This document shows, piece by piece, positions 50,694 to 58,239 of a stretch of DNA of 64,000 nt. Position 1 is the stretch's first letter, and the number at the start of each line of letters is the position of its first letter. The DNA lies in NCBI RefSeq assembly GCF_003334355.1, contig NZ_QOWP01000002.1; one strand, given 5' to 3'. The stretch comes from Escherichia coli. GTDB taxonomy: Bacteria; Pseudomonadota; Gammaproteobacteria; Enterobacterales; Enterobacteriaceae. The notes under the pieces are model-generated. The model had not been told where the DNA came from, searched no databases, and worked only from the letters and a program-made list of their open reading frames with translations. The translations under genes and the position numbers were made by a program.

Positions 50694-51782
50694 ATGAATA
50701 ACCGGGAAAAGGAGATCCTTGCAATTTTACGGCGTAACCCGCTGATTCAGCAGAACGAAATTGCGGACATGCTGCAAATCAGTCGTTCGCGCGTTGCGGC
50801 GCATATTATGGATTTAATGCGCAAAGGGCGGATTAAAGGCAAAGGTTACATTCTCACCGAGCAGGAATACTGCGTAGTGGTGGGGACAATCAATATGGAT
50901 ATTCGCGGGATGGCGGATATCCGTTACCCGCAAGCGGCTTCTCATCCCGGTACAATTCATTGCTCGGCGGGCGGCGTGGGACGCAACATCGACCACAATC
51001 TGGCGCTGTTAGGCCGTGACGTCCATTTGCTTTCAGTGATTGGCGATGACTTTTATGGCGAAATGCTCCTGGAAGAAACGCGCCGTGCCGGCGTGAATGT
51101 CTCCGGCTGCGTTCGTTTGCATGGTCAAAGCACATCGACGTATCTGGCAATTGCCAATCGAGACGATCAAACCGTGCTGGCGATTAACGATACCCATCTG
51201 CTGGAACAGTTGACACCGCAACTACTGAACGGGTCGCGCGATTTACTTCGTCATGCGGGCGTGGTACTGGCTGATTGCAACCTGACAGCCGAGGCGCTGG
51301 AATGGGTCTTTACCCTCGCTGATGAAATCCCGGTGTTTGTCGATACCGTTTCAGAATTCAAAGCGGGCAAAATCAAACACTGGCTGGCGCATATTCACAC
51401 CCTGAAACCCACTTTACCGGAGCTGGAAATTTTATGGGGACAGGCGATCACCAGCGATGCTGACCGTAATGCCGCAGTGAATGCATTGCATCAGCAAGGT
51501 GTTCAGCAACTGTTTGTTTATTTGCCCGATGAGTCAGTTTATTGCAGCGAAAAGGATGGAGAACAATTTTTGCTGACCGCGCCAGCGCATACGACAGTAG
51601 ACAGTTTTGGTGCTGACGATGGTTTTATGGCGGGCCTGGTATATAGCTTTCTTGAAGGATACAGTTTCCGCGACAGCGCCCGTTTTGCGGTAGCCTGCGC
51701 GGCAATTTCGCGCGCCAGCGGCAGCTTAAACAACCCTACCCTGTCTGCCGATAACGCGCTTTCATTAGTGCCAATGGTGTAA
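50694..51782 (+). CDS. yeiI: YeiI, PfkB-family sugar/nucleoside kinase with N-terminal HTH domain (362 aa)
   Basis: N-terminal winged-helix-like segment (EILAILRRNPLIQQNEIADMLQISRSRVAAHI) followed by a ribokinase-type core. Its translation aligns with PsuK in this same window. Confidence 0.9.
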   Translation: MNNREKEILAILRRNPLIQQNEIADMLQISRSRVAAHIMDLMRKGRIKGKGYILTEQEYCVVVGTINMDIRGMADIRYPQAASHPGTIHCSAGGVGRNIDHNLALLGRDVHLLSVIGDDFYGEMLLEETRRAGVNVSGCVRLHGQSTSTYLAIANRDDQTVLAINDTHLLEQLTPQLLNGSRDLLRHAGVVLADCNLTAEALEWVFTLADEIPVFVDTVSEFKAGKIKHWLAHIHTLKPTLPELEILWGQAITSDADRNAAVNALHQQGVQQLFVYLPDESVYCSEKDGEQFLLTAPAHTTVDSFGADDGFMAGLVYSFLEGYSFRDSARFAVACAAISRASGSLNNPTLSADNALSLVPMV

Positions 51783-51837
51783 CAATGTTGCCGGATTCGA
51801 CGCTTGACCGCATCTTATCCGGCTCATAAATTGCGCA

Positions 51838-53088
51838 CTACGCTAAACCAATAAAGAATCCTGCAATAGTAGCACTCATCAGGTTAGAAAGTGTCGCCGC
51901 CGCCAGCGCGCGTAAACCAAGTTGGGCGATTTCCGGCGCACGGTGTGGCGCAACCGCAGAAAACGCCCCCACCACCACCCCGATAGAACCAAAGTTAGCG
52001 AAACCGCACAACGCGAAAGAAATAATCGCCACGGTTTTAGCATCCAGAGTGCCACCCGTTTGCAGATATGGCGAGAAATTGAGATAAGCGACAAATTCAT
52101 TGATCGCCAGCTTCTGCCCAATCAAACTCCCGGCAAGATTTGCATCACTCCAGTCAACCCCCATCACCCACGCCAATGGGGCCAACAGGTAACCTAAAAT
52201 GGACTCCAGCGAGGCATGTGCAAAACCAAACCAGCCGCCAACGCCGCCGATAATACCATTAATTAACGCAATGATGGCGACAAATGCCATAACAACTGTC
52301 GCTACACCGGCGGCGATTTTCAGCCCGGTCATTGCCCCTGTCGCAGCGGCTTCAATAATGCTTTTTGGCGGTGTTTCGGTGAAAGAGAGGTTATTAAAGG
52401 AAACCTGCGAAGATTCCGTAGCCGGGCTTAACAGGCGGGCAAACAAGATCCCGCCTGGGATCGCCATTAACGATGCCGCCAGCAAATATTCCACAGGTAC
52501 GCCCAGGGCGGCGTAACCAATCATTGTCGAACCAGCAATCGAGGCCATGCCACTACAAATCGCTGTAAATAATTCATTGCGATTCAGACGATCGATAAAG
52601 GGTTTGACGATCGCCGGAATTTCGTTTTGCCCGAGGAAAATGGTGGTGACCGCGACGAATGACTCAATCTTGCTGATATTTAATGCTTTCTGGAATATAC
52701 CGCCGAGAATGCGAATTAAAATCCCCATCACACCGATGTAGTAGAGAATACTCACCAGTGCAGTGACGAAGATAATTGCCGGTAATACCCTGAAACCAAA
52801 GATAAATCCTGCGCCATCAAACAGCGTGTCCATTTTCGGCCCGACCAGCGAACCGAAGATAAATGCGCTACCCGCGTCGCTGTACGCCATCACTTTATGC
52901 ACGCCAAAAGCGACTTTTTCAGCGACCCAACGCCCTGGCGGTAACCAAAGCATAATCCCGCCAATCACGACCTGTAACACTAACGCCGCGCCAACGGTAC
53001 GCAGGCTGATCTTCTTCTTGTTTACTGACAGCAAAAACGCAATCGTCAGCAATACCACCATTCCCAGAACACTTCTCATGACATCCAT
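51838..53088 (-). CDS. nupX: NupX (YeiJ), CNT-family nucleoside permease (416 aa)
   Basis: Near-identical paralogue of PsuT in this window. Confidence 0.9.
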   Translation of the reverse strand: MDVMRSVLGMVVLLTIAFLLSVNKKKISLRTVGAALVLQVVIGGIMLWLPPGRWVAEKVAFGVHKVMAYSDAGSAFIFGSLVGPKMDTLFDGAGFIFGFRVLPAIIFVTALVSILYYIGVMGILIRILGGIFQKALNISKIESFVAVTTIFLGQNEIPAIVKPFIDRLNRNELFTAICSGMASIAGSTMIGYAALGVPVEYLLAASLMAIPGGILFARLLSPATESSQVSFNNLSFTETPPKSIIEAAATGAMTGLKIAAGVATVVMAFVAIIALINGIIGGVGGWFGFAHASLESILGYLLAPLAWVMGVDWSDANLAGSLIGQKLAINEFVAYLNFSPYLQTGGTLDAKTVAIISFALCGFANFGSIGVVVGAFSAVAPHRAPEIAQLGLRALAAATLSNLMSATIAGFFIGLA

Positions 53089-53187
53089 AGTTATTATCTC
53101 TTCATGTCATATTGGGCGACGGCTTTCTGCCCATCAGAAATAGCCGGGCTTGGATCTTGCGATACTGACCCGGCTTGTTATCAACAC

Positions 53188-56278: not shown

Positions 56279-56371
56279 AATGATTTTCCCTTCATGCCAG
56301 TAAACCCGGCGTCAGCGCCAGGTTTTGGTATGTTTGATGAGTACGGGCGACGGCTTTCTGCCCGTCAGAAA

Positions 56372-57310
56372 TTAACCCGCGAGACGCTGGTATTCTTTGG
56401 CAATTTCACTCGCCAGAATGGCGTTGTTGAACACCAGCTGGATATTGGATTTCAGGCTGTCACCGCCGGTCAGTTCAGCAACGCGCGCCAGCAGGAACGG
56501 TGTACTTTCTTTACCAATAACGCCCTGCTCTTCGGCTTCGGCGACGGCTTGATCTATGGCTGCATTGATAGATTCCTCCGGCATCGCAAACTGTTCCGGG
56601 ATCGGGTTCGCTACCACGAGGCCACCGTTCAGCCCGCTTTGCCATTTCACCGCCATTGCACGGGCAATTTCACTGGCGCTGTCGAGACGAATGCTGACGT
56701 CAAACGAGCTGGTACGGCAGAAAAACGCAGGCAGCGCTTTAGTCTGATAGCCAATTAACGGCACACCGAAGGTTTCTAAATACTCAGTGGTTAATCCTAA
56801 ATCGAGAATAGATTTCGCCCCGGCACAAACAACGGTGACATTAGTATTTGCCAGTTCTTGCAAATCGGCAGAAATATCGAAGGTATGTTCCGCCCCGCGA
56901 TGCACACCACCAATTCCCCCGGTGGCAAATACTTTAATTCCGGCAAGCGCCGCAATAATCATCGTTGAAGCCACAGTGGTTGCGCCATTTTTTCCGGCGG
57001 CAACAACAAAAGGTAAATCGCGACGACTAACTTTGGTCACGTTATGCCCTTCACGACCCAGTAATTCAATTTCTTCTTTACTTAAACCCACTTTCATCAC
57101 GCCGCCAATAATGGCGATAGTGGCAGGTACTGCGCCCTGTTTACGAATAGTTTCTTCTACTTCAATTGCGGTCTGGGCATTTTGTGGGAACGGCATCCCG
57201 TGAGAAATAATGGTCGATTCCAGCGCCACAACCGGTTTTTTGTTTTTTAAAGCTTCCTGCACTTCCGGGGAAATTTGTAATAATTCAGGGGAAATTTTTA
57301 ATTTAGACAT
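56372..57310 (-). CDS. psuG: PsuG (YeiN), pseudouridine-5'-phosphate glycosidase (312 aa)
   Basis: Length and position match; N-terminus MSKLKISPELLQISPEVQEAL. Confidence 0.9.
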   Translation of the reverse strand: MSKLKISPELLQISPEVQEALKNKKPVVALESTIISHGMPFPQNAQTAIEVEETIRKQGAVPATIAIIGGVMKVGLSKEEIELLGREGHNVTKVSRRDLPFVVAAGKNGATTVASTMIIAALAGIKVFATGGIGGVHRGAEHTFDISADLQELANTNVTVVCAGAKSILDLGLTTEYLETFGVPLIGYQTKALPAFFCRTSSFDVSIRLDSASEIARAMAVKWQSGLNGGLVVANPIPEQFAMPEESINAAIDQAVAEAEEQGVIGKESTPFLLARVAELTGGDSLKSNIQLVFNNAILASEIAKEYQRLAG

Positions 57311-58239
57311 TCTGCGTTCTCCACTAACGATATAACGTTGGCAATCGATAAATCGGGGTTATTGGTGTATTCACAGGAGAGCGCCATTGACGAACATCCC
57401 TGTGCGAAACGAACAGATTCGGCAAACGGCATTCCGTCTACCCAACACGAAGCAAGTCCCGCCATCATGGCATCGCCCGCTCCGGTAACATTAATAACAT
57501 TGGTTTTGATCGGCGCAGACCAGCCATTTTCACCTCTGATATCGCTGTAATAAACGCCGTCGCCGCCCATGCTCAATACCAGTCGGTTCAGGCCATGTTG
57601 ATGGAACCAGGCAGCAACTTTTGCCACATCGTCACGCCCTGACAGCGCAATCCCACTCAGGGTTTCCGCTTCAAGGCGGTTTGGCTTCAGAGTGTGGATC
57701 TGATTTAGACGGTCGCGCACTTTGACACATTTCCATGCGGAAACCGGATCGACAAATACGGGTACGTTGGCGGCATTATCCAGAATCCATGCCAGTGCCT
57801 CTTCACTGATATTACAGTCCGCAACAATGACCTTTGCCCTCTGAATAAATTCACGGTGCTGTGCGAGATATTCAGCTGTAATAGCGTTGCTAATATTCAT
57901 GTCATTTATAGCAACCAGCATTTCACCGGTATTATCGAGTAATGATAAATAACTAGACGTATTTTCTCCCGGCACAATCAGGCATTTATCGACATAAACG
58001 CCAGATTGATTGGTTTGCGTTAGCAGCGATTGACCATAAAAATCACTGCCTACTGCGCTCAGTAGCCAGGCTTTGTTACCCAGCAACGCCAGGTTTTGTG
58101 CAATATTGCGCCCTACTCCACCAGGCGTAAATTTTATTTTACCTGGATTTGAATCCGCATAATTTAATGATTCATGTGAATATCCGGCGACATCAATATT
58201 CGCCGAACCTATAATTACGACATAATCCTTTTCGCGCAT
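57298..58239 (-). CDS. psuK: PsuK (YeiC), pseudouridine kinase of the PfkB family (313 aa)
   Basis: Ribokinase-type motifs (GGVGRN, GAGD). Overlaps the psuG start by 13 nt. Confidence 0.9.
   Translation of the reverse strand: MREKDYVVIIGSANIDVAGYSHESLNYADSNPGKIKFTPGGVGRNIAQNLALLGNKAWLLSAVGSDFYGQSLLTQTNQSGVYVDKCLIVPGENTSSYLSLLDNTGEMLVAINDMNISNAITAEYLAQHREFIQRAKVIVADCNISEEALAWILDNAANVPVFVDPVSAWKCVKVRDRLNQIHTLKPNRLEAETLSGIALSGRDDVAKVAAWFHQHGLNRLVLSMGGDGVYYSDIRGENGWSAPIKTNVINVTGAGDAMMAGLASCWVDGMPFAESVRFAQGCSSMALSCEYTNNPDLSIANVISLVENAECLN

Follow-up and report, generated by a model that had tools for sequence, protein, structure and literature searches.

How did a 7.5-kb stretch of the Escherichia coli chromosome come to hold two CNT-type nucleoside transporter genes, nupX and psuT, and two PfkB-type kinase genes, yeiI and psuK, that resemble each other in pairs? 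The stretch occupies positions 50,694 to 58,239 of contig NZ_QOWP01000002.1 (assembly GCF_003334355.1) as numbered in a window of 64,000 nucleotides, the whole stretch of DNA that was analysed. A first-pass annotation had seen here one module of kinase, transporter and nucleoside-cleaving enzyme in two copies, yeiI-nupX-rihB and psuT-psuG-psuK. The comparisons described below indicate that a yeiL-rihB-nupX cassette most likely recombined into an older cluster of psuK-psuG-psuT plus yeiI, with no on-site copying of three genes. Taken as a whole, the best explanation, which we regard as probable, is that of two unrelated functional units, the cassette being nested in the pseudouridine unit, with YeiI as a predicted regulator and YeiL as a Crp/Fnr-type one.

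Its sequence agrees at 100% with that of ATCC 8739-type strains, and it was matched in all 5426 complete E. coli genomes; nupX, psuT, yeiI, rihB and psuK are the RefSeq names that stand under the genome matches. Neither the genes nor the paralogies are new: all seven genes had been annotated before, and published work has placed NupX and PsuT in one CNT clade (PMC11241209) and grouped YeiI with the pseudouridine kinases (PMC9061257). The gene order is nfo(+), yeiI(+), nupX(-), rihB(-), yeiL(+), psuT(-), psuG(-), psuK(-), fruA(-), and the genes under study are as follows.

50694..51782, plus strand: yeiI, 362 residues, winged helix-turn-helix (HTH) at residues 1-48 and PfkB domain at residues 58-348; predicted regulator
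51838..53088, minus strand: nupX, CNT transporter of 416 residues, the rihB-linked paralogue; T188 codon at 52525-52527
53188..54129, minus strand: rihB, pyrimidine ribonucleoside hydrolase of 313 residues; first gene of the rihB-nupX operon
54259..54957, plus strand: yeiL, Crp/Fnr-family regulator with an annotated GTG start; third gene of the cassette, between the two gene sets
55028..56278, minus strand: psuT, CNT transporter of 416 residues, the psuG-linked paralogue; M188 codon at 55715-55717
56372..57310, minus strand: psuG, pseudouridine-5'-phosphate glycosidase of 312 residues; orthologues carry Pfam Indigoidine_A
57298..58239, minus strand: psuK, pseudouridine kinase of 313 residues without an HTH; canonical NxxE and GAGD motifs

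Six of these open reading frames lie where the first-pass annotation had put them; yeiL had been left out.

Origin of the second transporter gene

NupX was scanned against one genome per species and the window proteins were mapped onto the loci found; the figures on gene order are those among the matches listed. In E. albertii, Citrobacter sp. FP75 and C. werkmanii, psuK-psuG-psuT was accompanied by yeiI on the opposite strand and by nfo-yeiH-yeiE-lysP, without yeiL, rihB or nupX. 'Enterobacter' lignolyticus carried nfo-yeiI<>psuT-psuG-psuK-fruA, also without the cassette and, like the other three, at the site that is occupied in E. coli, and in Salmonella and Affinibrenneria yeiI was convergent with transporter-psuG-psuK as a four-gene unit in other chromosomal neighbourhoods; in all, yeiI adjoins psuT-psuG-psuK in seven lineages without rihB-nupX. 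Intact yeiL(-)/rihB/nupX was found at three unrelated chromosomal sites, in Superficieibacter, Hafnia and Raoultella, with RihB proteins 86-91% identical to that of E. coli, and rihB-nupX keeps yeiL as its partner in four genera. The complete E. coli arrangement was present in a divergent Escherichia lineage (Escherichia sp. 14.0993, L093). Because synteny outside E. coli groups the genes in this way, yeiI was assigned to psuKGT and yeiL to rihB-nupX. The proposed module yeiI-nupX-rihB does not survive this comparison: yeiI lies on the strand opposite nupX-rihB, with its start codon 3 nt past the nfo stop codon, it adjoins psuT elsewhere, and the true partner of rihB-nupX is yeiL.

Relative to the cassette-free lineages, E. 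coli carries one extra segment, and the transporter genes at its edges share flanking elements.

~51846..55049, no strand: extra segment of E. coli, ~3190 bp, absent in E. albertii, Citrobacter and lignolyticus
51790..51823, minus strand: palindrome resembling a repetitive extragenic palindrome (REP), 3' of nupX; its flank into yeiI is collinear with the E. albertii psuT-yeiI spacer
54981..55013, minus strand: REP-like palindrome 3' of psuT, a diverged copy of the nupX one
53114..53132, minus strand: 19-nt leader core GGGCAGAAAGCCGTCGCCC upstream of nupX, inside a 28-nt repeat at 53114-53141
56345..56363, minus strand: 19-nt leader core GGGCAGAAAGCCGTCGCCC upstream of psuT, in a 28-nt repeat at 56345-56372 that begins at the psuG stop codon

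From the nupX body the segment extends through the leader, rihB, yeiL and a REP-like element to the last ~10-20 nt of psuT, and both of its boundaries fall within nucleotides 1230-1243 of the transporter genes. At its last informative sites, and throughout its 3' spacer into yeiI, E. albertii psuT matches E. coli nupX and not psuT; Citrobacter is alike. Both ends of the extra 3190 bp therefore lie, in register, within the final ~20 nt of the transporter genes, which we read as the footprint left by homologous crossing-over. The two transporter genes form direct repeats at a spacing of 3190 bp, in register, and the duplicated unit reaches beyond the genes themselves: on the 5' side by the 28-nt stretch (27/28 identical) from the psuG stop codon, and on the 3' side by ~50 nt with the REP-like palindrome. 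Both palindromes appear to be part of the duplicated unit and not independent insertions; the one on the psuT side overlaps a sub-threshold Rfam match to the REP-derived naRNA4 (54950-55014, E = 0.48).

The leader core reads GGGCAG-NNNGCN-GTCGCCC and precedes the start codon of the transporter by 25-66 nt. It was present at the psu-linked genes of Escherichia, Citrobacter, Salmonella and lignolyticus and at the rihB-linked genes of E. coli, Esp14, Superficieibacter and Raoultella, and absent in Hafnia, Affinibrenneria and Serratia. A small hairpin of -5.9 kcal/mol is predicted for it, the 4+1-bp stem of which (GGGC/GCCC) is invariant, so that covariation says nothing either way; Rfam 15 gave no family match to 53089-53187 or 56279-56371, even at E <= 1. 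An upstream hairpin, TTTCTG-N5-CAGAAA, is not conserved beyond E. coli.

The two transporters had been described as near-identical. Their homology is indeed gap-free over the whole length of 416 residues in both; the wording is too strong for 369 of 416 residues identical (89%, with 95% positives) and for 78.5% identity in DNA. Third codon positions agree at 51%, synonymous divergence (dS) is ~1.5 and saturated, and nonsynonymous divergence (dN) is 0.073, larger than that of PsuT between E. coli and Salmonella (0.046) or E. coli and Citrobacter (0.030). Both proteins belong to the CNT family TIGR00804, with 499 bits for NupX and 518 for PsuT (cutoff 442). Dating by dS was dropped, synonymous sites being saturated in nearly all comparisons (dS 1.2 to infinity), and dN and synteny were used instead. 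Recent gene conversion as the source of the 89% identity in the window strain was likewise rejected, because no identical run of at least 25 nt was present and dS was saturated along the whole gene.

In a neighbour-joining tree of the proteins, the 416-residue transporters formed a clade with 100% support, to which the psu-linked transporters of Serratia (72% identity) were external; the clade spans psu-linked and rihB-linked copies of Enterobacteriaceae plus a Hafnia copy. All six rihB-linked copies have A56, V112 and T188, and all psuG-linked copies have V/I56, I112 and M188. Outgroup transporters have V188 and I/M112, thus polarising the cassette states A56, V112 and T188 as derived. E. coli NupX is therefore, as judged from these residues, likely a member of the cassette lineage.

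Deletions of nupX within E. coli are of a different kind from the clean absence seen in the cassette-free lineages. In ST131 (L081 4501-4767, E. coli O25:H4, equivalent to window 51783-53187), an internal deletion of ~1.13 kb joins codon ~22 of nupX to its last ~50 nt and spares both gene ends, while rihB, yeiL and the leader are intact. The 80-90% identity band that fits this deletion contains ~377 complete genomes. Because B2/ST131-type strains have deleted it, nupX is dispensable in a major lineage. At a second type of locus (L088, 7174-8919; RihB clusters P0017 and P0056), a C-terminally truncated RihB of 287 residues abuts yeiI and nupX is absent, a state shared by many E. coli and E. ruysiae-type genomes; in L088 itself yeiL is split into two open reading frames. 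This is a second, independent route of nupX loss.

Three observations favour insertion of the cassette at this site: four lineages lack it at exactly this position; the dN of the paralogues, 0.073, exceeds the 0.046 of PsuT between E. coli and Salmonella, yet E. coli and E. albertii differ at a dS of 0.5-0.8 for nfo, psuT and psuG; and the nupX losses seen in E. coli are of another kind. Several others weigh against it. No donor of the cassette was identified among the matches listed, the genome sample did not extend to E. fergusonii, E. marmotae or most Salmonella, and the saturated dS leaves no clock-like dating. The tree placed E. coli NupX as sister to the Escherichia/Citrobacter PsuT clade (73% bootstrap) and gave the monophyly of all cassette copies 14% support over the full-length proteins. 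NupX and PsuT differ at 47 positions; the cassette copies share the NupX state at 20 of these and the PsuT state at 18, and the cassette ancestry of E. coli NupX rests on three residues and synteny, though conversion could explain the mixed sites. Conversion tracts between the paralogues are found: nupX equals psuT over nucleotides 1050-1214, with one mismatch, in the GTDB representative of E. coli (L001; 10001-11251 versus 6800-8050), and a different tract, nucleotides 925-1016, ~94% identical, is present in L093 (8127-9377 versus 11318-12568); the window strain has none. Such tracts can draw NupX toward PsuT in whole-gene trees, and the full-length tree, with internal nodes of 36-73% and in conflict with the three derived residues, is probably confounded by conversion and was treated as unresolved.

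The crossover footprint is also symmetric, fitting a psuT x nupX deletion as well as an insertion, and so it serves equally a model in which an early ancestor of Enterobacteriaceae duplicated psuT in tandem on the spot and took up rihB and yeiL between the two genes, with later export of the cassette to other genera. E. albertii, Citrobacter and lignolyticus would then have lost the cassette by precise deletion between psuT and nupX, and in Salmonella the loss would have preceded relocation of the psu unit. Recombination between the copies does occur and nupX has demonstrably been lost in some E. coli, both copies share the leader and REP-like flank, and the tree joins E. coli NupX with PsuT. 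The model requires, however, that the cassette was cleanly deleted at least three or four separate times, always by a crossover within the same final ~20 nt, whereas the observed losses are internal to nupX (ST131) or also truncate rihB (L088). The cassette copies, moreover, are 81-88% identical to each other, no closer than to PsuT, and occupy unrelated sites. We consider this origin quite unlikely. An in-place duplication of an ancestral three-gene module, with copies then diverging in substrate, would explain why two of the three gene pairs are homologous and why the transporters are direct repeats, and is nevertheless highly improbable: RihB (IU_nuc_hydro) and PsuG (Indigoidine_A) have different folds and no similarity (best BLASTP E = 4.3), the transporters at 89% and the kinases at 39% identity are of unequal age, their splits falling within Enterobacteriaceae and near the base of Enterobacterales, respectively, and yeiI and rihB-nupX keep the other companions described above.

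The annotation's ancient local duplication is thus sound as to the age of the paralogues, and its locality is unlikely, the second copy being absent at this site in E. albertii, two Citrobacter and lignolyticus. The phylogeny that had been proposed as a check gave a clear answer for the kinases, a separate and older event, and a weak one for the transporters. The outcome lies close to the refutation named beforehand, namely transporters acquired independently and not by local duplication.

Insertion of the cassette would fit the following history. Unit A, the ancestral four-gene pseudouridine unit, would have been an operon psuK-psuG-psuT with convergent yeiI, and unit B a self-contained pyrimidine-nucleoside cassette of yeiL divergent from rihB-nupX, encoding a uridine/cytidine hydrolase and a CNT transporter. 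(RihB scores 727 bits against NF007417, ribosylpyrimidine nucleosidase, cutoff 459, with DCDPGHDD as the N-terminal DxDxxxDD calcium/ribose motif; YeiL scores 413 bits against NF007707, cutoff 180, and its orthologues carry cNMP_binding and HTH_Crp_2.) A single duplication of a psuT-type gene, including its leader and the REP-like flank on the 3' side, would have given rise to nupX within Enterobacteriaceae and later than the Yersiniaceae split; nupX would then have gained M188T at a base-contacting position. The cassette would then have passed between lineages and, in an ancestor of E. coli and some cryptic Escherichia clades, been integrated by homologous recombination of nupX with the resident psuT near the 3' ends, parting yeiI from psuT. 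Deletion of nupX in B2/ST131-type strains and patchy nupX/psuT conversion would have followed.

At the Raoultella cassette (L086 10507-11079), a YfbR-like HD-domain gene of the 5'-nucleotidase family follows yeiL-rihB-nupX, which suggests that the cassette can grow into a pathway leading from nucleotide to base.

Binding site of the two transporters

NupX aligned over its full length with nwCNT (5l26, E = 1e-130) and vcCNT (3tij, E = 1e-124), and nine nucleoside-contacting residues of vcCNT were mapped through the alignment to the solved CNT structures. NupX and PsuT are the same at eight of the nine positions, seven of which also equal vcCNT (G153, Q154, E156, E332, F366, N368 and S371); at the eighth, position 155, both have N, against T in vcCNT and S in NupC. 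The sole difference between the two is residue 188, a base-contacting residue of transmembrane helix 4, which is M in PsuT and T in NupX, V in vcCNT and I in NupC. The pair N155 and M188 was found in 14 of 14 psuG-linked copies, N155 and T188 in all six rihB-linked copies, and V188 in other CNTs; NupX accordingly fails at 188 the N155+M188 signature derived here from the 14 psuG-linked genes, which PsuT fits.

In published uptake assays NupX was weak for uridine and cytidine and PsuT showed no uptake, and the pseudouridine role of PsuT was deduced from operon context alone (PMC11241209). Residue 188 is, from the alignment, a specific candidate for a selectivity switch, and some divergence in substrate between NupX and PsuT is plausible. 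The first-pass expectation of substrate divergence is thus retained for the transporters and falls as the outcome of a module duplication.

At the sodium site, T149 and L152 are present in NupX (codons ~52633-52644), PsuT and all psu-linked relatives, and the sodium-coupled vcCNT has N149 and V152. These residues hint at a coupling ion other than sodium, as in the proton-driven NupC.

The kinase pair and the candidate operators

YeiI and PsuK are, as first described, both PfkB-type proteins with alignable cores (39% identity over 307 residues, E = 2e-76); YeiI has ~53 extra N-terminal residues. Chance can be discounted for this similarity as for that of the transporters. Its domains are HTH_24 (PF13412, residues 1-48, E = 2.3e-10) and PfkB (PF00294, residues 58-348, E = 9e-67). 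PsuK scores 715 bits against the pseudouridine kinase equivalog NF007355 (cutoff 540); YeiI, at 255 bits, falls under that cutoff and exceeds that of its own equivalog NF007416 (811 bits, cutoff 561). Its PfkB domain departs from the canonical motifs at two places.

51405..51422, plus strand: KPTLPE of YeiI, corresponding to PfkB NxxE; N187 in PsuK numbering replaced by T
51609..51620, plus strand: GADD of YeiI, corresponding to the PfkB GAGD anion hole; G255 in PsuK numbering replaced by D, catalytic Asp kept

Ligand residues of EcPsuK were taken for comparison from PMC9247573, in which the N187 and G255 positions lie at the proposed Mg/phosphate site. Every YeiI retains N14, D16, S30, G41, V42, N45, Y97, N143, D164, V166, S167, K170, E190 and D256, and the GG motif (GGVGRN) and catalytic Asp (D256 equivalent) are kept; changed across the YeiI clade are the base contact M114T, N187T (NxxE to TxxE) and G255D (GAGD to GADD). 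Of 93 full-length cluster representatives, 45 have 55% or more identity with YeiI, and every one of these is degenerate at the N187 and G255 positions; the other 48 are more distant, and 45 of them are canonical there. No solved structure for YeiI was found. In the window strain, residue 100 of YeiI (50991-50993) lies in GGVGRNIDHN, where all other orthologues and E. coli haplotypes examined have GGVGRNIAHN; this A-to-D change falls two residues past a ribose-contacting Asn.

Proteins with the same HTH-PfkB architecture are 76-78% identical to YeiI in Salmonella, 51% in Yersinia, 50% in Xenorhabdus, 42% in Aeromonas and 37% in Proteiniborus, and in Yersinia, Serratia, Aeromonas and Proteiniborus (a Firmicute) psuG is immediately preceded by the HTH-kinase gene and its neighbourhood has no separate psuK. 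A tree of the kinase domains nested the PsuK of Enterobacteriaceae among the HTH-fused kinases (95% bootstrap) and gave YeiI its own clade (100%). Degenerate YeiI was always adjacent to a canonical PsuK at the loci examined, and yeiI is under purifying selection (dN/dS 0.06-0.08). The most economical reading of these comparisons is that a bifunctional HTH-kinase was subfunctionalised into an enzyme, PsuK, and a sensor-regulator, YeiI, which would have lost kinase activity. The duplication of the HTH-fused pseudouridine kinase would be separate from that of the transporter and older, near the base of Enterobacterales; PsuK would have dropped the HTH and kept catalysis, and YeiI kept the HTH and nucleoside pocket and lost canonical NxxE/GAGD.

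YeiI appears in a list of hypothetical E. coli transcription factors (PMC6055005), and published accounts treat yeiI as an uncharacterised paralogue or kinase and note its automated labelling as a pseudouridine kinase as an error (PMC12506659). Elements to which such a regulator might bind were found at the psuK promoter.

58310..58339, no strand: two tandem 12-bp palindromes, GAGCACATGTTT (58328-58339) and GAACACATGTTT (58310-58321); candidate operators for a YeiI-type HTH
-35 at 58362-58367 and -10 at 58340-58345, minus strand: putative psuK promoter
58396..58411, minus strand: CRP-like site TGTGAGCCTGCTCAAA upstream of the putative psuK promoter, in a conserved block; it resembles the consensus and is named for that resemblance only

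The palindromes are of the form RAACAY-RTGTTY, lie 18 bp apart directly downstream of the putative -10, and are exact or carry one mismatch in E. coli haplotypes, E. albertii, Citrobacter and lignolyticus, against a background of 0.008 exact matches per kb. A pair of palindromes at this place recurred in each psuK promoter of Enterobacteriaceae that was compared. The Salmonella psuK promoter has one exact palindrome at the aligned position and a degenerate second, and in Yersiniaceae a conserved palindrome with the same AAACA-NN-TGTTT core lies upstream of the HTH-kinase operon. A generic scan for sigma-70 promoters and terminators gave matches no commoner than in shuffled sequence, the fruA terminator excepted. 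We infer from co-occurrence a link between YeiI and these putative operators. YeiI would on this evidence be a transcription factor responsive to pseudouridine or pseudouridine 5'-phosphate, acting at palindromes that overlap a putatively CRP-dependent psuK promoter. The combined proposal, that YeiI is a pseudokinase-type transcription factor that binds pseudouridine or its 5'-phosphate and controls psuKGT through RAACAY-RTGTTY, with residue 188 of the transporters as the switch between pseudouridine and uridine/cytidine, is one that we advance tentatively.

Some points tell against a regulator of this kind. The motif was not clearly present upstream of the Aeromonas or Proteiniborus HTH-kinase genes, the former having CAAACGTTTG twice at another spacing; yeiI appears to be co-transcribed with nfo in E. 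coli; and loss of NxxE and GAGD is no proof of lost kinase activity. YeiI may instead be an active nucleoside kinase with a diverged substrate, such as a modified pseudouridine or another C- or N-nucleoside, whose HTH serves autoregulation only. The retained catalytic Asp, E190, GG motif and all ribose contacts, the base-contact change M114T throughout the clade, the purifying selection on yeiI and the ancestral HTH-fused proteins, which are evidently real kinases, are all compatible with such activity. However, the N of NxxE and the second G of GAGD, near-universal in PfkB kinases, are both replaced in every one of the 45 close representatives, and degenerate YeiI co-occurs throughout with an adjacent canonical PsuK. 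Growth on pseudouridine is moreover lost in a psuK mutant, and YeiI thus does not take over from PsuK (Preumont 2008, as cited in PMC12506659). An active kinase is therefore rather unlikely in our estimate.

A candidate operator for the cassette's own regulator was also present.

54230..54245, no strand: 16-bp palindrome TATGAGATTTCTCATA (TATGA-N6-TCATA) in the yeiL/rihB divergent promoter region; candidate YeiL operator

This palindrome has the 5-6-5 format of Crp-family sites and precedes the annotated GTG start of yeiL by 13 nt. Four E. coli haplotypes, Superficieibacter and Hafnia have it unchanged and Raoultella retains 14 of 16 bases (ATGAGATTTCTCAT), while the rest of the spacer diverges. 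It is thus a candidate Crp/Fnr-type operator for the divergent yeiL and rihB promoters, through which YeiL would control rihB-nupX.

Variation, related systems and implications

Several observations concern the locus within E. coli. Between the window strain and L001, protein identity is 97% for YeiI, 96% for PsuK and PsuG and 95% for YeiL, and 100% for nfo, fruK and lysP; yeiI and psuK differ between E. coli and E. albertii at a dS of 1.2-1.3, and nfo at 0.5. The allelic divergence, unusually high for E. coli, could reflect old haplotypes or introgression. G+C content is 0.43 across yeiL (54000-55000) and 0.44-0.47 across psuK and its promoter (57000-58500), and 0.51-0.55 in the flanking genes. 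The cassette-free E. coli strain H50 was set aside as uninformative, its deletion being IS5-mediated, and a plasmid was rejected as the vehicle of the cassette, the matches being mislabelled chromosomes or IncHI1A plasmids without rihB-nupX. Large E. coli IncHI1A plasmids (L083 7337-11317, pBS90R-A_1 and at least five similar ones) carry yeiL-psuT-psuG-psuK flanked by insertion sequences (IS), without rihB, nupX and yeiI; the protein accession of their PsuT is identical to that of ST131 chromosomes.

Campbell-type, homology-driven integration places acquired DNA next to a resident homologue, and the NagC/Mlc repressors of the ROK family combine a non-catalytic, ligand-sensing sugar-kinase fold with an N-terminal winged HTH. 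As in the former, the boundaries of the insert lie in register within homologous genes and a direct repeat flanks the new genes; no integrase, IS element or att site is involved, and the event is read from comparison, the reverse deletion leaving the same footprint. YeiI would be analogous to NagC/Mlc in its winged HTH, its kinase fold with a ligand pocket, its catalytic paralogue and the candidate operators over a catabolic promoter; it differs in that the fold is PfkB/ribokinase and not ROK/actin-like ATPase, in that its regulatory role is predicted and in that the fused protein is still a working kinase elsewhere. NupG and XapB provide a parallel for the transporters, XapB being a paralogue dedicated to the xapAB catabolic operon beside a general nucleoside transporter (PMC11241209). 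NupX and PsuT likewise represent a related transporter recruited beside a nucleoside-cleaving enzyme and its own regulator, with a narrowed or shifted substrate range; unlike NupG and XapB, they are CNT and not NHS transporters, and they are adjacent.

The window genes psuK, psuG and psuT are the published E. coli yeiC, yeiN and yeiM, respectively (Preumont 2008, as cited in PMC9247573 and PMC12506659; PsuK structures 7vkp and related entries); yeiI is argued here to be a fourth member of that unit. This is a known locus shaped by ordinary evolutionary processes, to which the present analysis adds modest new hypotheses for YeiI, YeiL and residue 188. Its corrected grouping bears on two poorly characterised regulators and two transporters, in that yeiI is to be studied with psuKGT and yeiL with rihB-nupX, and it cautions against automated annotation of YeiI as a pseudouridine kinase. 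It also bears on pseudouridine-production strains with engineered psuK, psuG and transport genes. If YeiI is a sensor and residue 188 a switch, the locus would illustrate how a fused enzyme and regulator can divide into one protein devoted to catalysis and another devoted to sensing.

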